This document shows positions 6,303 through 39,192 of a stretch of 43,524 nucleotides of DNA, piece by piece. The notes beneath the pieces are model-generated. The model was not told the DNA's origin. It saw only the letters and a list, made by a program, of their open reading frames with translations, and ran no database searches. This stretch comes from an uncultured Gammaproteobacteria bacterium. Lineage in GTDB: Bacteria > Patescibacteriota > Microgenomatia > UBA12405. A program made the translations under genes and the position numbers. Position 1 is the first letter of the stretch, and every line of letters starts with the position of its first letter. The stretch is from positions 1-43,524 of the forward strand of contig CAZLCB010000002.1 of assembly GCA_964558195.1 (NCBI GenBank), written 5' to 3'.

Positions 6303-6893
6303 ATGGTTTTTTATCGAAGATCGATTCGATTAAAAGGATTTGATTATTCGCAGAATGGTTGTTATTTTGTGACGTTTTGCACATGGAAACGGTTGAATAT
6401 TTTAGGGAAAATTATTGATAATAAAATGGTGTTAAATAATTTGGGTGAGATTGTAAAAAATGAATTAATCAAAACAGAAAAGATTCGGGAGAATGTAAAA
6501 ATTGATGTTTTTCAAATTATGCCAAATCATGTTCATTTAATTTTGGTGATAAAAAATACCCCAGATATTAAAAATAATAATGTAGGGTATTGCGGGGGAA
6601 ATGTAGGGTATTGTGGGAAAGATGTAGGGGCGTATTGCAATACGCCCCTACGGGATAAAAATAAATTTACATCACCGAAAAATAATTTGGGATCAATAAT
6701 TAGAGGGATTAAATCAACGACAAGTAAACAGATTGGCCAGATTGAATTAGATGGTTTACCAGTTTGGCAGAGAAATTATTTTGAAATAATCATTAAAGAT
6801 GAAACAGAATATTTAAAAATTAAAAATTATATAGAAATTAATCCTGCTATTTGGAATAGAGATAGAAACAATTTGTTAGTAAAAAAGATATAA
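6303..6893 (+). CDS. IS200/IS605-like Y1 HUH transposase, REP-associated tyrosine transposase (RAYT)-like
   Basis: Contains the HUH motif MPNHVHLIL and the downstream tyrosine motif WQRNYFEIII. The length and N-terminus (GFDYSQNGCYFVTFCT) are typical of COG1943-type proteins. It also carries an internal palindrome. Confidence 0.8.
   Translation: MVFYRRSIRLKGFDYSQNGCYFVTFCTWKRLNILGKIIDNKMVLNNLGEIVKNELIKTEKIRENVKIDVFQIMPNHVHLILVIKNTPDIKNNNVGYCGGNVGYCGKDVGAYCNTPLRDKNKFTSPKNNLGSIIRGIKSTTSKQIGQIELDGLPVWQRNYFEIIIKDETEYLKIKNYIEINPAIWNRDRNNLLVKKI
6579..6641 (+). repeat. three tandem 21-nt units inside the RAYT-like gene
   Basis: The units are AATGTAGGGTATTGCGGGGGA, AATGTAGGGTATTGTGGGAAA and GATGTAGGGGCGTATTGCAAT. 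They encode NVGYCGG NVGYCGK DVGAYCN. Confidence 0.8.
6624..6651. repeat. perfect 28-nt palindrome GTAGGGGCGTATTGCAATACGCCCCTAC (REP-like)
   Basis: The sequence is self-complementary as read. Related copies lie at 6212-6238 and 26608-26631. Confidence 0.9.
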
Positions 6894-11804: not shown

Positions 11805-12449
11805 ATGTTCAGGGAAAAGTTAGGGAAATTTGGTTGGGTGGATGGATTGTTAATTTTAGGAATGATTTTAGTGATAGCTGGGATTGGCATGAATTTTCAA
11901 AATAGTTTTTGGGAAAAAGCCGAGGTGAAATTAATTAAAAAAGAAATTTTAGTAACGCCCCACCAACAGCAATCACAGTTAGGCGGGCAGGCAAGTATTG
12001 GTGTACAAAGTAATAATAAAGTAACTATTGATGTAGGGGGGGAGGTAATAAATCCGGGGGTTTATACTTTAGATAAAGAGGCGAGAGTAAATGAGGCGTT
12101 GGTGATGGCAGGTGGTTTGTCGGCTAAGGCGGATCGTGATTGGGTAGAGAAAAATTTAAATAAGGCGGAAAAGTTAGTTGATGGGCAGAAGATCTTTATC
12201 CCTAAAACAGGAGATGTTTTAGGGAATTTTCAATTATCAAATTCCAATTTACAAGATACAATTGTAAGGATAAATTCTGCGACAGCAGAACAACTAGATA
12301 CTTTAAGTGGAATCGGTCCGGCGATGGCTGAAAGAATAATTGATTATCGGACGAAAAATGGGGGATTTAAGAATATAGAGGAATTAAAATTGGTGAGTGG
12401 AATTGGAGATAAATTGTTTGAAAAAATTAAGGATGATATTGCTCTTTAA
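11805..12449 (+). CDS. comEA: competence protein ComEA (SLBB domain plus helix-hairpin-helix DNA-binding domain)
   Basis: N-terminal TM helix, the SLBB-like segment VTIDVGGEVINPGVYTL, and the C-terminal INSATAEQLDTLSGIGPAMAERIIDYRTKNGGFKNIEELKLVSGIG. Confidence 0.9.
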   Translation: MFREKLGKFGWVDGLLILGMILVIAGIGMNFQNSFWEKAEVKLIKKEILVTPHQQQSQLGGQASIGVQSNNKVTIDVGGEVINPGVYTLDKEARVNEALVMAGGLSAKADRDWVEKNLNKAEKLVDGQKIFIPKTGDVLGNFQLSNSNLQDTIVRINSATAEQLDTLSGIGPAMAERIIDYRTKNGGFKNIEELKLVSGIGDKLFEKIKDDIAL

Positions 12450-12471
12450 ATATTTTATTTGACTCGGCAAT

Positions 12472-12535
12472 ATTTTTTTCGGGCTTGCAACCATCGTAAT
12501 ATCCACTCAGAGGCGGCGCCCTGCAAAAAACATTG
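12472..12535 (+). repeat. about 62-nt hairpin element (family M), intergenic copy
   Basis: The core ACCATCGTAATATCCACTCAG and the terminal inverted repeat TTTTTTCGGGC/GCCCTGCAAAAAA match the copy inside murB (26333-26394). Confidence 0.75.
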
Positions 12536-12598
12536 CCTGCGTCAAAATATATTTAGTATTTTTACTTCGCCCAGGGCGGGGTAAGGGTTTGAGAGAAA

Positions 12599-13555
12599 AT
12601 GAACTGGAAAATAAAAAAAATTTTAATTTGGATATTGTTGGGAGTGGTAGGGTTTTTGATGTACAGGTTTGTAAAAAGGGATATTTTGATATATGTGGTT
12701 AATCAAGGGTTGCCAGGAACAGAAGCGGGATTATTAAATGGGATGTTGTGGGGAGATAAAACTGGTTTCAGTAAAGATTTTTATAATCAATTAAAAAACA
12801 GCGGACTGGTTCATTTGGTAGTGGTGAGTGGTAGTAATATTATTTTGGTGTTTAAAGGGTTGGTAGAAAATTTAGCTAAGTTAATTGGAAGAAAAAAAGC
12901 GATTGGGTTAGGGTTTGTAGTAGTTCTGGGATATTTGGAGATAGTGGGTTGGGAGGTACCGATAGTGAGAGCGATGATTTTGGTATCGGTCATGTATTGG
13001 GCACAAATTTTGGGGAGAAAATATAATTTGGTCAGAGGTTTAATTTTGAGCGGATTAATAATTGTTTTGGCTTGGCCGGGATCACTTGGTGAAGTTAGTT
13101 TTTGGTTAAGTTTTATGGCATTTATAGGAGTAGTGACAAGCCCGTGGAAAGGAATATTGGCTTCAAGTTTTTGGGTGAGTTTGTGGATTAGCCCAATAAT
13201 GGGGTTGTTTTTTGGAAAAATTAATTTAGTGGGGCCGATAAGTAATTTATTGGTAATACTAGTAGTAGAAACAGTGACAGTAGTGGGTTTTGGAGGAACA
13301 TTTTTGGGGTTAATAGTGCCAGTGTTAGGGAAAATGGTTTTGTGGTCGATATGGCCATTATTAAAATATTTTGCGGTGGTGGTAGAGATGGTGGGGAGTT
13401 GGGGATGGGTTAATGTGGAGGTAAAATTTAATTATTTGATATTGTTGGGGTGGTATGTGATATTGATTTGGTTAAAAGTAAAATTGAATATGACCCACCC
13501 CTGCCCCTCCCTCAGGGAGGGGAAATCTTTCTATACCCCGCCCAGGGCGGGGTGA
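12599..13555 (+). CDS. comEC: ComEC/Rec2 competence-domain membrane protein (membrane part of a split comEC)
   Basis: Polytopic, with the ComEC signature region GLLNGMLWGDKTGFSKDFYNQLKNSGLVHLVVVSGSNI. The last roughly 25 codons read into the repeat cluster, so the true C-terminus is uncertain. Confidence 0.8.
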   Translation: MNWKIKKILIWILLGVVGFLMYRFVKRDILIYVVNQGLPGTEAGLLNGMLWGDKTGFSKDFYNQLKNSGLVHLVVVSGSNIILVFKGLVENLAKLIGRKKAIGLGFVVVLGYLEIVGWEVPIVRAMILVSVMYWAQILGRKYNLVRGLILSGLIIVLAWPGSLGEVSFWLSFMAFIGVVTSPWKGILASSFWVSLWISPIMGLFFGKINLVGPISNLLVILVVETVTVVGFGGTFLGLIVPVLGKMVLWSIWPLLKYFAVVVEMVGSWGWVNVEVKFNYLILLGWYVILIWLKVKLNMTHPCPSLREGKSFYTPPRAG

Positions 13556-15471: not shown

Positions 15472-18171
15472 ATGGCGGATTTTAAGTTAATTGAAAATAA
15501 GTGGGAAAAATTCTGGGAGGAACACCCAGAGATTTGTAGTGCCAAAAATCCAATAACCAAGAAACAAATTAATAATCAAGAAATAAACAAAGGTAAGAAG
15601 TATGTATTAGTGGAGTTCCCGTATCCAAGTGGAAGTGGTTTACATATTGGTCACGCTTTTAGTTTTACAGGGGCTGATGTTTACGCTAGGTTTCAGAGGA
15701 TGATAGGTTACAGCGTATTGTTTCCAATGGGTTGGGATGCTTTTGGTTTACCAACAGAGAATTATGCAATAAAAATGAAACGTAAGCCCCAGGAGATAAC
15801 TAGGGAGAATACAGATCATTTTAGAAAACAAATGAAAAGGTTGGCTTTTTCGTTTGATTGGGAGAGAGAGGTGGATACAACTGATCCACAATATTATAAG
15901 TGGACTCAATGGATTTTTATTCAATTATTTAAAAAAGGACTGGCTTATAAAAAAGAGATGCCAATTAATTGGTGTCCGAGTTGTAAAATTGGTTTGGCTA
16001 ATGAAGAAGTAGTCGATGGTAAGTGTGAAAGGTGTGGAGTTGAAGTTTCCCGGAGAAATATATCCCAATGGGTAGTAAAGATAACAGATTATGCGGATAA
16101 ATTAATTGAGGGTCTGAAAGGAACTGAGTTTATTGAAAAAGTAAAACAACAACAGATTAATTGGATAGGAAAGTCGGAAGGGGCAAATGTTAAATTTCTA
16201 ATTTCTAATGACCAATTTCTAAGCAAAACGGAAAAGCAATATCTGGAGGTGTTTACTACTAGACCGGATACACTTTTTGGAGCAACTTTTATGGTAATAG
16301 CACCGGAGCATAATTTAGTTGAAAGTTTAAAGTCAAAAGTTGAAAGTGAAAGGTGGGAAGAAATCAATAATTATGTAAAAAATGCGAGAAAAAAGAGTGA
16401 TATGGAAAGGACGGAACTTTCCAAAGATAAAACGGGAGTGTTCTCGGGATTATATGCGATTAATCCAGTGAATAATAAACAAATTCCAATCTGGATAAGT
16501 GATTTTGTATTGGCCAGTTACGGGACCGGAGCAATTATGTCAGTGCCGGCCCATGATGAGAGAGATTTTGCTTTTGCAAAAAAGTTTGGTTTAGAAATAG
16601 TACCGGTGGTATCTCCAGAAAATAATCAATGGGACTTTGATAAAAAACCCTATACAGATGTAGACAATGGAAGAATAATTAATTCGGAACCGATTGATGG
16701 CATGGTGCCGTCAGCGGCTTTTGAAAAAATGATAAAGTGGCTAGGGGAAAAAGGGATTGGGGAAAGAACGGCATCATATCATTTAAGGGATTGGATATTT
16801 AGCCGACAACATTATTGGGGAGAACCAATACCAATGATTAAATGTGATAAATGTGGTTGGGTGCCAGTACCAGATGAAGAATTACCAATAGTGTTACCAG
16901 AAGTGGAGGCATATGAGCCGACTGACGATGGTAAAAGTCCATTATCAAAAATTGATAGTTTTGTGAAATGTAAATGTCCTATTTGTGGCAAGGAAGCTGA
17001 GAGAGAAACCGATACGATGCCAAATTGGGCAGGAAGTGATTGGTACTTCTTGGGATATATATTGGCTAATAAAATTAATAACCAAGAAACAATAAACAAG
17101 AAACAAAATAAAGAAATAATTACTCAACGAAATTGCCACGGTTCGACTAATGTCGAATCTCGCAATGACGAAGCTAATGATACATTTACTGATATATTTA
17201 GTTCTAGTCAAGAAGAATTAAAATACTGGTCACCGGTAGATATTTATATTGGTGGAGATGAGCATAATGTACTTCATTTGCTTTATTCTCGGTTTATTTA
17301 TAAATTTTTGTGGGAGTTAGGAGTTTTACCAAAGGAAAAACCAGAGCCATATTTTAAAAGAATTTCTCATGGGGTAATTTTGGGTCCAGATAATCAGAGG
17401 ATGAGTAAATCCAGAGGAAACGTAATTGTGCCGGAAACCGTAGCGGATAAGTATGGGGTGGATGTGGTAAGAATGTACCTGATGTTTATGGGGCCATTTG
17501 ATTCAACCATGGCTTGGAATGAAAAGACATTGATGGGAGTAAAAAGATTTGTTGATCGCTTTAATGAATTCGATGAAAAATTAAATAAGGAGATTAAGAT
17601 GTCTCAATTATTTATTAATAGTGAAGAAGAATACCCTGAAGTAAAGGTAATTATTAATAAAACAATTAAAAAAGTAACTGAAGATCTTGAGCAGTTTAAA
17701 TATAATACTGCTATCGCTTCAATGATGGAACTGATAAATAAACTTCAGGAAATTAGAATAAGTAGATCGATTAAGCCTATTACTGACGGAAAACCAAATT
17801 GGATGTTGGTTGTTAGTAAAGAAAGTGTTAAGAAAATAATTAAATTAATAGCGCCGTTGGCGCCGTATATGGCTGAAGAGATGTGGAGTATGGTAAGAGA
17901 CGAGAATGATGTAGTTTCGGTCCATTTGAGTGATTGGCCAAAGGTTGATGAAAAATATTTAGTCGAAGATGAAATTAGTTTACCGGTGGCGATTAATGGT
18001 AAAGTGAGAGGTCAAATTAGTTTATCAAGTGAAAAGTTAAAAGTTGAAAGTAAAGAAGAGATAGTTGCTAAGGCAAAAGAATTAGAGCAGGTTAAAAAAT
18101 GGGTAGGAGAGGGTAAGATAGTTAAAGAGATATACGTACCAGGGAAAATGGTTAATTTGGTGATACAATGA
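15472..18171 (+). CDS. leuS: leucine--tRNA ligase
   Basis: Motifs FPYPSGSGLHIGH (HIGH), TTRPDTLFGATF, GTGAIMSVPAHDERDF, DTMPNWAGSDWYF, and PVDIYIGGDEH with KMSKSRGN (KMSKS). Confidence 0.97.
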   Translation: MADFKLIENKWEKFWEEHPEICSAKNPITKKQINNQEINKGKKYVLVEFPYPSGSGLHIGHAFSFTGADVYARFQRMIGYSVLFPMGWDAFGLPTENYAIKMKRKPQEITRENTDHFRKQMKRLAFSFDWEREVDTTDPQYYKWTQWIFIQLFKKGLAYKKEMPINWCPSCKIGLANEEVVDGKCERCGVEVSRRNISQWVVKITDYADKLIEGLKGTEFIEKVKQQQINWIGKSEGANVKFLISNDQFLSKTEKQYLEVFTTRPDTLFGATFMVIAPEHNLVESLKSKVESERWEEINNYVKNARKKSDMERTELSKDKTGVFSGLYAINPVNNKQIPIWISDFVLASYGTGAIMSVPAHDERDFAFAKKFGLEIVPVVSPENNQWDFDKKPYTDVDNGRIINSEPIDGMVPSAAFEKMIKWLGEKGIGERTASYHLRDWIFSRQHYWGEPIPMIKCDKCGWVPVPDEELPIVLPEVEAYEPTDDGKSPLSKIDSFVKCKCPICGKEAERETDTMPNWAGSDWYFLGYILANKINNQETINKKQNKEIITQRNCHGSTNVESRNDEANDTFTDIFSSSQEELKYWSPVDIYIGGDEHNVLHLLYSRFIYKFLWELGVLPKEKPEPYFKRISHGVILGPDNQRMSKSRGNVIVPETVADKYGVDVVRMYLMFMGPFDSTMAWNEKTLMGVKRFVDRFNEFDEKLNKEIKMSQLFINSEEEYPEVKVIINKTIKKVTEDLEQFKYNTAIASMMELINKLQEIRISRSIKPITDGKPNWMLVVSKESVKKIIKLIAPLAPYMAEEMWSMVRDENDVVSVHLSDWPKVDEKYLVEDEISLPVAINGKVRGQISLSSEKLKVESKEEIVAKAKELEQVKKWVGEGKIVKEIYVPGKMVNLVIQ

Positions 18172-24893: not shown

Positions 24894-25042
24894 TATCCTA
24901 TAATGGTTGACTGTTTTGAATTAATGAGGTAAAATCCGGCGTTGTACTTTAAAATAAATTTTCTGAGCAAGACTGAATTTCGAGTTGTCGGGATTGAGTT
25001 TTGCTCAGAAGAGCAAAAACGGATGAAAGGGGATTCTGGCCG

Positions 25043-25528
25043 ATGAAGGATCTGTTGGTTTCGAAGGTTTCAGTGGAAACGGTACTAGGAACTACGAGGT
25101 TGGTTATGTGGGCACCGACGGCAAGTGGTTGTTATGAGCCTGGTTTTGATTGCATTCAATGGACAGATGTTCAGCTTCAGAGAGAAACCTATTTGCAGAG
25201 GATTCCGCATACCACCTATGACTGTCACGAATCAATTGATCCAACTTGGCCGACCAAGGAAGTTGTTGCCGATGTTTTTGGCAGGCCGGGATGGAAAGGT
25301 GAACCGATTTATCGTCGGCTGGAGAAGCTGATGGAATCAGGAACTGATTTGTCTTTGTTGCTTCCCGGAAGCCGGAGGCATATGCCGATCTATTTTGCCA
25401 AAGGCAACAGATTGTTGGCTGTTTGGGATGGATCGACTGGAGCGATCTTGTTGGTTGAAGAACTGCCTGAAAGTTGCAAAAACTTTTATCAGGCAGCGTT
25501 CGCCAATACTCGGAGACAGGTTGCTTAA
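25043..25528 (+). CDS. hypothetical protein (GC-rich orphan unit)
   Basis: ATG 25043 follows AAGGGGA. About 48 percent GC by eye. Upstream promoter-like CCTATAAT, a 10-bp leader stem (24961-24970 with 25001-25010) and a downstream 10-bp stem (25544-25553 with 25579-25588). Confidence 0.5.
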   Translation: MKDLLVSKVSVETVLGTTRLVMWAPTASGCYEPGFDCIQWTDVQLQRETYLQRIPHTTYDCHESIDPTWPTKEVVADVFGRPGWKGEPIYRRLEKLMESGTDLSLLLPGSRRHMPIYFAKGNRLLAVWDGSTGAILLVEELPESCKNFYQAAFANTRRQVA

Positions 25529-25661
25529 TATAATTCCCTTGTTGGGTATGGTAAAAAATTGGATTAATTTCCATTTTGTACCATACCCATGTCCGTTAAA
25601 TGTTTATTGTTGAAAACAATACTGATGAGTTTTTCCTAAATTTAGGAATAAAACGAAACAT

Positions 25662-26585
25662 TTAGAACTGGCCGAGGAATTTTATTTCCGGTTCGAGAGC
25701 GATGCCTAATTTTTCTTGAGCTTGGGTTTGAATGAATTTAACTAATTTAAAATAATCGGCAGCAGTGGCATGACCTTTATTGATAATAAAGTTAGCATGA
25801 AGGGGACTGATTTGAGCATCACCAATAGAATAACCTTTGAGATTTAATTTTTGATCGATAATCATGCCAGATGAGTCTTGGTTTGGGTTATTTTTGAAAA
25901 CTGAACCCAGGGAATTCATTGATTGAACAGAAGATTTTCTTTGTAAAATACTTTGAAATTTTTGTTTGGCAGTAGCAGTATCACCAGAATTTAATTGCAA
26001 AATGGCAGAAATTATAAAATTATTAATTTTTTCAACAGAAATGACGAATTGGGAAAATAAATGTTTATCGTCACCGTGAATATTGCCGGCAATAGCACCG
26101 CCGACAGTGGAGGGAATGTAGGCAAATTCTTCCAGACCAACCAAGTTATTATCTAAAGTAAAATTAATGAGTTGGGGAAGCTGGACACCAGAAGCAACTT
26201 TTACTTGATTGTTGGGTAAAATTTCTATTTCGTTGGAATCATTTTTGATAACAATGCCGCGAAGGCCAGAATCGGAAATTAAAACATTGGAGCCATTTCC
26301 TATTATGGAAATTGAAAATTTGCCTCGTAACGAATTTTTCGAGGTGCTCGCACCATCGTAAAATCCACTCAGCGGCTTGCGCTCCTCAAAAATTGTTACT
26401 TCGGTGTTTTCATTTTTTAAAAAATTTAAAATTTTTTTAAATTCTTCTGATGATTTGGTGTGAATAAAAATATCGGCAGGACCGCCGATTTTGACGGTGG
26501 TGTAAGGGGCAAGGGTGTGATTTTGGTAGATTTCGGAGTTGGGGAAATTAGATTTAAGGTTAGAGTAAAGTTTATCGATATTCAT
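25662..26585 (-). CDS. murB: UDP-N-acetylenolpyruvoylglucosamine reductase
   Basis: Motifs HTLAPYTTVKIGGPAD, IIGNGSNVLISDSGLRG, IPSTVGGAI, and the C-terminal GDAQISPLHANFIIN. It contains an extra in-frame segment at 26333-26394. Confidence 0.88.
   Translation of the reverse strand: MNIDKLYSNLKSNFPNSEIYQNHTLAPYTTVKIGGPADIFIHTKSSEEFKKILNFLKNENTEVTIFEERKPLSGFYDGASTSKNSLRGKFSISIIGNGSNVLISDSGLRGIVIKNDSNEIEILPNNQVKVASGVQLPQLINFTLDNNLVGLEEFAYIPSTVGGAIAGNIHGDDKHLFSQFVISVEKINNFIISAILQLNSGDTATAKQKFQSILQRKSSVQSMNSLGSVFKNNPNQDSSGMIIDQKLNLKGYSIGDAQISPLHANFIINKGHATAADYFKLVKFIQTQAQEKLGIALEPEIKFLGQF
26333..26394 (+). repeat. about 62-nt hairpin element (family M), copy inside murB
   Basis: Terminal inverted repeat AATTTTTCGAGG/CCTCAAAAATT. 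The core ACCATCGTAAAATCCACTCAG matches 12472-12535. Confidence 0.75.
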
Positions 26586-38435: not shown

Positions 38436-38528
38436 ACCCTTCCTAAATCCTTCCCTTGACAGGGCAGGACTTAATAAATTTTTATTTTCCCTTGCCCTGT
38501 CAAGGGAAAGGGGTAGGGGTTAGGGTTT
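38434..38528. repeat. 95-nt imperfect inverted repeat with AAACCCT/AGGGTTT termini
   Basis: Arms are AAACCCTTCCTAAATCCTTCCCTTGACAGGGCAGG and CCCTTGCCCTGTCAAGGGAAAGGGGTAGGGGTTAGGGTTT around an AT-rich loop. It begins inside the hydrolase stop codon. Confidence 0.8.
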
Positions 38529-38619: not shown

Positions 38620-39192
38620 ATGCAAATATATTTTGTAGCCTCATCTAGATTAGTGGGCAAGGATAAAGAACTTTATTCATTGATGTATAAAACAATTTCG
38701 ACTGAGCATAAAATGGTGAGTGATAAGGTTTGGAGATGGGTGAAAAGCGGTGTAGAAGATTTGAGGGGTGATCCACAGGCAAAAAAAGAAAATTACAATG
38801 AAACTTTGAAATGTATTAATAAATCAGATATTGTGATTATGGAAATTTCCGGGCACAGTATGTCGATGGGCTATATTTTGAGTAAAGCTTTGGAAATTAA
38901 CAAACCGGTGATTGCCATGTATAAGGAAGAAATGGAACCGGTGTTTATAGCTGGTATGGATGATCCAAAATTGATTTTGGCAAAATATACTTCGGCTAAT
39001 GTAGAGAAAACTATTTGGGAGTCGATAAAAAAAGCTAAAGGTTTGATTGATGTTCGTTTTAATTTTTTTGTGTCACCAAAAATTTTGACTTATTTGGATT
39101 GGGTAGGGCAGAAAAGAATGATTCCAAAATCAGTTTTTTTAAGAAACTTGATTGAAAGAGAAATGAAAAAGGATAGGGATTTTAGAGGGTAA
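38620..39192 (+). CDS. nucleoside 2-deoxyribosyltransferase/DNPH1(Rcl)-like domain fused to a C-terminal ribbon-helix-helix-like segment
   Basis: MQIYFVASSR... and SDIVIMEISGHSMSMGYILSKALEINKPVIAMY resemble the Rcl/NDT fold motifs. The tail VRFNFFVSPKILTYLDWVGQKRMIPKSVFLRNLIEREM fits the RHH pattern. ATG 38620 is preferred. Confidence 0.5.
   Translation: MQIYFVASSRLVGKDKELYSLMYKTISTEHKMVSDKVWRWVKSGVEDLRGDPQAKKENYNETLKCINKSDIVIMEISGHSMSMGYILSKALEINKPVIAMYKEEMEPVFIAGMDDPKLILAKYTSANVEKTIWESIKKAKGLIDVRFNFFVSPKILTYLDWVGQKRMIPKSVFLRNLIEREMKKDRDFRG

Follow-up and report, generated by a model that had tools for sequence, protein, structure and literature searches.

Two hairpin copies in the window

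The window (the whole 43,524-nt stretch of DNA analysed here) holds two copies of a hairpin repeat, one inside a gene and one between genes. The host gene is murB (25662-26585, minus strand), which encodes a UDP-N-acetylenolpyruvoylglucosamine reductase of 307 aa. Its assignment rests on Pfam (MurB_C, 7e-26; FAD_binding_4, 7e-15), on similarity of the product to MurB in the PDB (1.9e-34), and on a Foldseek search in which the best matches of the modelled protein were MurB structures. The repeat occupies 26320-26408 on the plus strand, antisense to murB; it matched covariance model R1 over 26316-26410 (70 bits, E 1e-15) and could be aligned with 55 other copies. The second copy (12459-12545, plus strand; model R1 match 12455-12548, 114.8 bits, E 1e-28) is found in the spacer between a comEA-like gene with SLBB and HhH domains (11805-12449, plus strand; Pfam HHH_3 1.5e-23, SLBB 9e-8) and, downstream, a comEC-like gene with a Competence domain (12599-13555, plus strand; Pfam Competence 1.2e-36). 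This spacer copy starts ~10 nt past the comEA stop, ends ~54 nt before the comEC start and is co-oriented with both genes.

Both hairpins carry an apical core of 21 nt, ACCATCGTAAWATCCACTCAG, that is found at only two places in the window, 12490-12510 (ACCATCGTAATATCCACTCAG) and 26352-26372 (ACCATCGTAAAATCCACTCAG), each time as an exact match over 21 nt. In shuffled window sequence, no occurrence was expected by chance (100 shuffles). The cores are both on the plus strand, in agreement with the common orientation reported by the initial annotation of this DNA, and the two copies are identical at 20/21 core positions, which corrects the 20 of 22 given there. With filters off, no further decayed copies were detected in the window beyond the two known ones; a weak match at 39064-39132 (E 0.027) was dismissed as an extra copy since it has no core.

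The extent of the element also had to be revised. It had been described as ~62 nt long with terminal inverted repeats, and its second copy had been placed at 12472-12535. The quoted repeats are indeed present, both in murB (AATTTTTCGAGG at 26333-26344 and CCTCAAAAATT at 26384-26394) and in the spacer copy (TTTTTTCGGGC/GCCCTGCAAAAAA), but the two copies can be aligned over ~90 nt rather than 62, and the true hairpin measures ~88 nt, reaching 12459-12545 in the spacer. The difference is made up by additional outer stems, GTAAC/GTTAC plus CC/GG in the murB copy and GAC..GGCAAT/ATTGCC..GTC in the spacer copy. The arms of the element are complementary end to end, and its 88 nt have no coding capacity for a transposase. 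As RNA, the murB copy folds with -20 to -22 kcal/mol (z -3.4).

The repeat family, its sites and its strand polarity

A single scan of GTDB genomes with the core returned 21 loci, and the whole hairpin was common to 18 of them, which we regard as true copies. Their hosts were Ca. Shapirobacteria MAGs, one 'Parcubacteria' MAG, and several MAGs labelled 'uncultured Gammaproteobacteria'. Exact-core matches in Bacteroidales/Fibrobacter coding sequence (L004, L017, L018) come without the hairpin and were rejected as chance matches. Metagenomes scanned with the core contributed 28 more loci with at least 27 copies, and viral contigs gave no copy. A covariance model was built from 22 copies, and the search with it recovered 56 copies, 49 of them distinct, from Ca. 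Shapirobacteria-like MAGs and metagenomes. Our core is thus not confined to the two sites noticed at first but belongs to a hairpin family with covarying stems. The carriers represent one clade, since proteins encoded next to the true copies share 60-96% identity among themselves and with those of the window; the nearest named MurB orthologs are from Ca. Shapirobacteria. The family consists of ~88-nt hairpin repeats restricted to a Ca. Shapirobacteria clade (Patescibacteria/CPR), with a long imperfect stem, an asymmetric 21-nt apical core, and 1-3 exact-core copies per MAG.

Across the 56-copy alignment, standard pairs were found in 96.2% of stem cells, compared with 86% when partners were shuffled and 46-60% in slid controls. 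Changes on both sides were counted in 95 stem cells, and 11/18 pairs had a compensatory change. Covariation of this strength indicates that the hairpin is under selection or active maintenance. It extends to the terminal bases, which covary as TTGAC/GTCAA, TTGGC/GCCAA and TTAAT/ATTAA. The invariance of the core needs to be interpreted with caution and is partly a search bias, considering that all copies from the databases were retrieved by exact matching to the core; copies that were found by the model only, and that have no exact core, show diverged cores (L015:1192, L039:1005, L041:6348, L026:1766).

Several known signals were considered for these hairpins. They are bordered by a T-run (5') and an A-run (3'); as the T-run precedes and the A-run follows the hairpin on both strands, there is no U-tail behind it, and an intrinsic terminator was ruled out. 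A promoter was rejected as well, for no -10 box lies at a usable spacing from the TTGACT of the 5' end. Rfam searches around both window copies, at gathering and at permissive thresholds, gave no credible match and no ribozyme or intron signature, and our literature search for palindromic or MITE elements in CPR/Patescibacteria found nothing relevant.

The 56 copies collapse to ~12-13 orthologous sites. Among them are the comEA-comEC spacer, the two flanks of a jag-like gene and of a small zinc-ribbon gene, a position upstream of an epmA-like gene, murB, and leuS. A count of coding and intergenic copies had been suggested at the outset; by site, two of ~13 fall within genes (murB and leuS). 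Two copies initially placed inside ORFs (L001 and L020) turned out to precede the start codon of the epmA-like gene by a short distance. Even genomes with only 65-90% identity in the flanking proteins share sites, and presence or absence among related genomes varies at every site examined. The comEA-comEC spacer, for example, is occupied in the window, L008, L021, L029, and L042 and empty in L010, L032, and L035, and in some genomes other, GC-rich palindromes are found in the same spacers. Filled and empty sites were too diverged for a target-site duplication or a sharp junction of an empty site to be resolved, and no flanking direct repeat was seen.

The leuS copy is the second case of the element within a coding sequence. 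In locus L005, which belongs to another genome, the element is in frame at leuS residues 226-255 (SPDSISILSSSHHRNIHSAACGRKIDTSSAF) and is read in its own sense. According to protein and DNA alignments, it is absent from four leuS orthologs (those of the window, L033, L042, and L050), and the empty counterpart of the L005 insertion site lies at 16147-16200 (plus strand) in the leuS of the window (15472-18171). Since the murB copy is antisense and the leuS copy sense, the family tolerates coding sequence in both orientations, which is also the case for Rickettsia palindromic elements (PMC10969869).

All copies share one orientation relative to GC skew. The skew of the window is strong and uniform (+0.20 to +0.44), with no drop across blocks of minus-strand genes, and only ~60% of the genes are on the plus strand (counted from the ORF list). 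The core strand, the one on which ACCATCG... is read, is the G-rich strand in 56/56 copies, with a flank skew of +0.20 to +0.52. Where skew and gene strand disagree, namely at murB, at the site upstream of the epmA-like gene, and in L013 and L024, the orientation follows the skew; six additional loci likewise have murB on the C-rich strand. Counted by site, polarity is the same at ~13/13, for which the chance probability is ~1 in 8000. GC skew is usually taken to mean that the G-rich strand corresponds in sequence to the lagging-strand template, the strand left single-stranded for a short time at the replication fork, and on that interpretation the core strand is the lagging-strand template. 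A comparable orientation bias is known for IS200/IS605 elements, as these excise from and insert into the lagging-strand template (PMC5027513, PMC6006769).

The fixed polarity bears on whether the repeats could work as RNA. For intergenic copies, the typical distance is 1-26 nt from the preceding stop codon and 30-50 nt to the following start. Both neighbouring genes run in the direction of the element in ~40 of 50 copies, and at ~9 of 11 intergenic sites the element directly follows a stop codon, between two genes that share one direction on the G-rich strand. Such placement, together with the covarying stems and the positions conserved between genomes, would suit a host-functional hairpin in intercistronic RNA, either for processing (for instance an RNase III substrate) or for stability (for instance a 3' stabiliser like REP/Correia), with the murB and leuS copies as accidents. 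This explanation is at odds with an element that follows the skew where the gene strand disagrees, with two in-gene copies that are read in opposite senses, and with the negative Rfam result. It also fails to explain the polarity, because a near-palindrome folds in either orientation, and we consider an RNA role to be quite unlikely. Folding energies were uninformative as a guide to a functional RNA strand. The reverse strand, opposite to the flanking genes, folds more stably in 48/48 copies (stem counts of 15 G·U vs 10 A·C), and this difference stems from the nearly invariant apical part.

The MurB insert and nucleotide-level constraint

Translation of 25662-26585 reads through the element in frame (...TIFEERKPLSGFYDGASTSKNSLRGKFSISIIGNGSN...), in accordance with the initial annotation. 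The extra segment, TEVTIFEERKPLSGFYDGASTSKNSLRGK, corresponds to the codons of MurB residues 61-89 (26319-26405, minus strand), as delimited by alignments with PDB structures and orthologs and by AlphaFold. A tryptic peptide within the insert would be PLSGFYDGASTSK, or KPLSGFYDGASTSK with a missed cleavage. Residues ~56-93 stand opposite 3-4 residues in the Listeria and Bacillus structures (Listeria 3tx1: 56-87 vs 3). The insert had been put at 20-28 extra residues; it is real, but the excess amounts to ~29 aa over solved structures and to 25 aa over the closest insert-free orthologs.

To place the insert among related proteins, the MurB linker was defined as the stretch between KIGGxAD and GNGSN, which could be scored in 114 orthologs. 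Its baseline is 26-30 aa, and a length of 51-59 aa was found in 23 of the 114, so relatives do not all carry a segment of such length. The recognisable element peptide (FEERKPLSGFYDGASTSKNSLRGK and variants) is present in 13 of these 23 long-linker MurBs, and many other linkers, at 32-45 aa, resemble partial deletions. Judging from these alignments, the element inserted into the variable MurB linker ahead of the GNGSN loop, which binds FAD, and the insert appears to have decayed or been partly deleted since in many lineages. The closest orthologs are informative in this regard. MurBs of 282 aa that are 87-95% identical to ours lack exactly 75 nt (25 aa) at the insert position and retain GCCGAAGCAAAC; as this resembles the end of the element, they are probably deletion derivatives of the insert.

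Copies in murB are found in the window, in L011, in proteins P0003, P0005, and P0030, and in others. The insertion is old: the insert is present in orthologs that are only 61-69% identical overall (P0030, P0036, P0119). In every murB and leuS copy examined the frame is open, including the decayed copies of P0049 and P0066, whose internal frameshifts are compensated.

The structural prediction is compatible with a flexible insert. The AlphaFold2 model of MurB, based on an alignment of 41 sequences, has a mean pLDDT of 80 and agrees with MurB crystal structures outside the insert. Residues 65-88, which lie between a helix (46-58) and a strand (91-95), have pLDDT <50, which fits the surface loop considered in the initial annotation but is no proof of one. 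Based on this model, the insert is likely a disordered surface loop of ~25-29 residues that would be translated and tolerated by the enzyme.

An insert that never reaches the protein might be excised at the RNA level or skipped by programmed ribosomal bypass of the hairpin, as in T4 gene 60 and the mitochondrial 'byp' elements. In favour of this explanation are the stable hairpin in a coding region and a nucleotide conservation higher than a disordered loop needs. We regard it as highly improbable, considering that the frame is open and in phase in all murB and leuS copies examined and that the insert has no stop codon, no take-off/landing codon pair, and no Rfam ribozyme or intron signature.

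Conservation within the murB copy is pronounced at the nucleotide level. At third codon positions in the element, the window shares 90-97% identity with P0002, P0005, and P0030, compared with 49-68% in the rest of murB. For the window and P0030, 27/30 third positions agree in the element vs 133/273 elsewhere in murB (Fisher p = 9e-6). The outer stem shows a compensatory change between murB copies (GTAAC/GTTAC to GCAAC/GTTGC). The murB copy of P0036 has a GATAAT/ATTATC outer stem and a CAG/CTG inner stem, as in intergenic variants, and that of P0119 has an alternative core, CTGAGGCCTCTGGCGAAGG, in common with the intergenic copy L015:1192. This conservation could reflect either selection on the hairpin in place, homogenisation by gene conversion, or repeated re-occupation of the site.

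These results also bear on another explanation of the insert, a native, lineage-specific loop of MurB whose similarity to the comEA-comEC spacer arose by chance or by local duplication. The hypervariability of the MurB linker in this clade would agree with such a loop. A 21-nt core beyond chance, the same 88-nt hairpin at ~13 unrelated sites in many genomes, the absence of the segment from the closest orthologs, and synonymous sites conserved far above the rest of murB do not, and a native loop is already refuted.

Proposed mechanism and comparison with known systems

Our preferred interpretation, to which we give a probability of about 0.55, is that the repeats form a new non-autonomous palindromic family in CPR, RPE/REP-like in kind, that acts as a single-stranded DNA hairpin. 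It builds directly on the observed family membership, the compensated hairpin, the insertion relative to orthologs, the open frame, the fixed polarity, and the conservation at synonymous sites. In the proposed course of events, one copy inserted long ago into the MurB linker, stayed in frame, and would now be translated as a tolerated loop. The lagging-strand template would expose the element, non-autonomous and of the REP/MITE/RPE kind, as a single-stranded hairpin, and in this form it would be recognised, spread and/or homogenised. This would account for the same polarity in every copy and for the nucleotide conservation within a gene.

Several observations argue against simple selfish mobile DNA. 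No transposase, target duplication, or viral-contig copy was found, and the copies are few and hold conserved positions. A tblastn search with an IS200 TnpA query, a weak test, detected no Y1 transposase/nuclease in 424 kb of loci from incomplete genomes, and no parent insertion sequence with the same ends was seen in the same 424 kb. Low copy number and conserved sites fit a stable, possibly host-useful element better than an active spreader. It is conceivable, if doubtful, that the repeats are not merely selfish and that a dedicated protein reads them, for instance in priming or restarting replication or in organising the chromosome, so that each base pair is preserved even within the coding sequence of murB.

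In its fullest form, host use would mean a set of about a dozen polar DNA sites at fixed positions, including two in essential genes, where hairpins on the lagging-strand template serve as signals, for instance for primosome assembly or restart or for another protein linked to replication or segregation. An absolute skew polarity (56/56 copies, ~13 sites) would be expected of such signals, as would the low copy number, the conserved positions, the synonymous-site conservation in murB, and the compensatory changes between orthologous copies. Yet presence varies at every site examined, unrelated GC-rich palindromes occur in the same spacers, the murB copy has decayed or been deleted in many lineages, and the leuS site is new in a single genome, as for a mobile element. 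We know of no protein that binds these sites, and we consider a fixed set of host signals unlikely.

In-frame palindromic repeats in essential genes are best known from Rickettsia. Their counterpart in Patescibacteria, another lineage of reduced genomes, points to small hairpin elements as a recurrent origin of protein loops and of variable length in core genes. CPR annotation and phylogenomics are affected too, as the lengths of the MurB and LeuRS linkers vary because of such elements. An RPE-like element in a reduced genome will not surprise specialists; what is unusual is its strict polarity and its conservation in position and at synonymous sites. Compared with the initial annotation, the uniform polarity on the G-rich strand and the third-position conservation of the element inside murB are new. 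Strict polarity and synonymous-site conservation together offer a concrete handle on a single-strand DNA enzyme or host factor in these uncultivated organisms.

Among known systems, the initial annotation had pointed to the Rickettsia palindromic elements (RPE). The in-frame palindromic inserts in murB and leuS bear out the resemblance, but the likeness is functional only, and membership in an RPE family is not demonstrated. The alphaproteobacterial RPE-1 to RPE-10 are ~100-150 bp long and are present in dozens per genome, nearly half of them in ORFs (Ogata et al. 2000, summarised in PMC10969869). In common with them, our elements are small dispersed palindromes of a reduced genome, some of which lie in frame in unrelated housekeeping genes where the extra peptide would be tolerated. 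By the same description, they differ in length (88 nt), in the number of sites (~13, only two of them in genes), in their host (Patescibacteria, not Rickettsia/Rickettsiales), in a polarity fixed by skew, and in their conserved orthologous positions.

REP/REPIN sequences are 20-40 nt long and strictly extragenic, have hundreds of copies and a 5' GTAG-type tetranucleotide, and are associated with a REP-flanked gene for RAYT (TnpA-REP), a Y1 HUH nuclease (PMC3116915, PMC6006769). With our family they share hairpins with covarying stems, a frequent position after operon stop codons, a probably non-autonomous nature, and probable processing as single-stranded DNA. However, our hairpins have 88 nt, two sites inside genes, and 1-3 exact-core copies per MAG, and neither a 5' GTAG-type tetranucleotide nor a REP-flanked RAYT gene was seen in our loci.

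IS200/IS605 elements and their miniature derivatives, which transpose as single strands by 'peel and paste', resemble the family in an orientation tied to the lagging-strand template and, in the proposed mechanism, in the recognition of a DNA hairpin instead of double-stranded inverted repeats (PMC5027513). They make no target-site duplication, and none could be resolved here. Their ends carry a pair of different subterminal hairpins but lack terminal inverted repeats, whereas our element is a single hairpin from end to end, and neither a TnpA gene nor a fixed tetranucleotide at the flanks was found.

The ERIC, Correia/NEMIS, and BOX MITEs are likewise imperfect palindromes of ~100 nt that are transcribed within operons and are occasionally intragenic with an open frame (PMC10969869). 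The terminal inverted repeats, small size, and lack of transposase coding of our element are those of a MITE. ERIC, Correia, and BOX also have TA or other target duplications, a parent IS or host-factor sites, and both orientations, and none of these was shown here.

A further parallel are integron attC sites. These imperfect palindromes, 57-141 nt in length, act as folded polar single strands in which structure is more conserved than sequence. In attC the ends are conserved and the centre varies, which is the reverse of our repeats. An attC identity was rejected, as RYYYAAC/GTTRRRY boxes are absent, the ends read TTGRC...GYCAA, and there is no context of cassette arrays or an integrase; our copies are single and lie between core genes such as comEA/comEC, the jag-like gene, and leuS. 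Judged by these comparisons, rather than being a demonstrated member of RPE, REP, IS200/IS605, or attC, the element would best be described as a new family within a known type of repeat.

The murB–137-aa gene interval

Between murB and a 137-aa gene, the G+C content of the window is visibly above that of the neighbouring sequence (24961-25589). This G+C-rich segment is flanked by inverted repeats (24961-25010 and 25543-25589) and contains an ORF of 175 aa (25001-25528, plus strand) that begins with TTG and for which no Pfam match was found. The segment looks like an acquired cassette, because two syntenic loci from related genomes (L022 and L023) carry other genes at this position.

The segment is followed by a type III hammerhead ribozyme motif (RF00008; 25597-25664, plus strand). 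At its 3' end, the motif overlaps the stop codon of murB, which is encoded on the minus strand. The Rfam match reached 40.2 bits (local E ~4e-7), which is below the gathering score of 48.5. The motif retains an intact core (CUGAUGAG...CGAAAC) and an intact GUU cleavage site.

Palindrome families and paired element copies

The 88-nt hairpin element shares its clade with other palindromes. A second, GC-rich family of the CCCTTGACAGGGCAAGGG / GCCCAGGGCGGGGTAAGGG type sits in intergenic spacers, and in some genomes it fills the same spacers that hold the 88-nt element in others. Its members were located at 38442-38517 and 12567-12590 of the window, and in related loci at ~3950-4020 of L002, ~3055-3100 of L010 and in the comEA-comEC spacer of L032. 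A perfect palindrome, GTAGAGACG...CGTCTCTAC, was observed in L033 (2735-2762), L050 (3280-3307) and L035 (1195-1222) and is absent from the window. It lies in frame within leuS in L033 and within comEA in L035, and represents a further palindrome family residing in genes of the same clade as the 88-nt element. The window also holds a perfect 14+14 palindrome lacking a spacer (GTAGGGGCGTATTG/CAATACGCCCCTAC; 6624-6651), in or beside the ORF at 6303-6893.

Elsewhere, two co-oriented copies of the 88-nt element flank one small gene (L003, 240-942; L049, 165-877; L009, 974-1689; L015, 1192-1685). These single genes encode a jag-like KH/R3H protein or a zinc-ribbon protein, and the paired arrangement is conserved between these different genomes.

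GC skew and inserts in LeuRS

GC skew across the window (1-43524, 4-kb windows) is very strong and uniform, at +0.20 to +0.44. Positive skew is maintained in blocks of minus-strand genes, with only ~60% of genes on the plus strand.

Lineage-specific inserts are numerous in the core enzymes of this clade. In LeuRS, a 29-aa segment of the window protein (ETINKKQNKEIITQRNCHGSTNVESRNDE, ~residues 575-605; leuS at 15472-18171) is missing from the L005 ortholog, while the latter has 19-aa and 36-aa segments that are missing from the window LeuRS.
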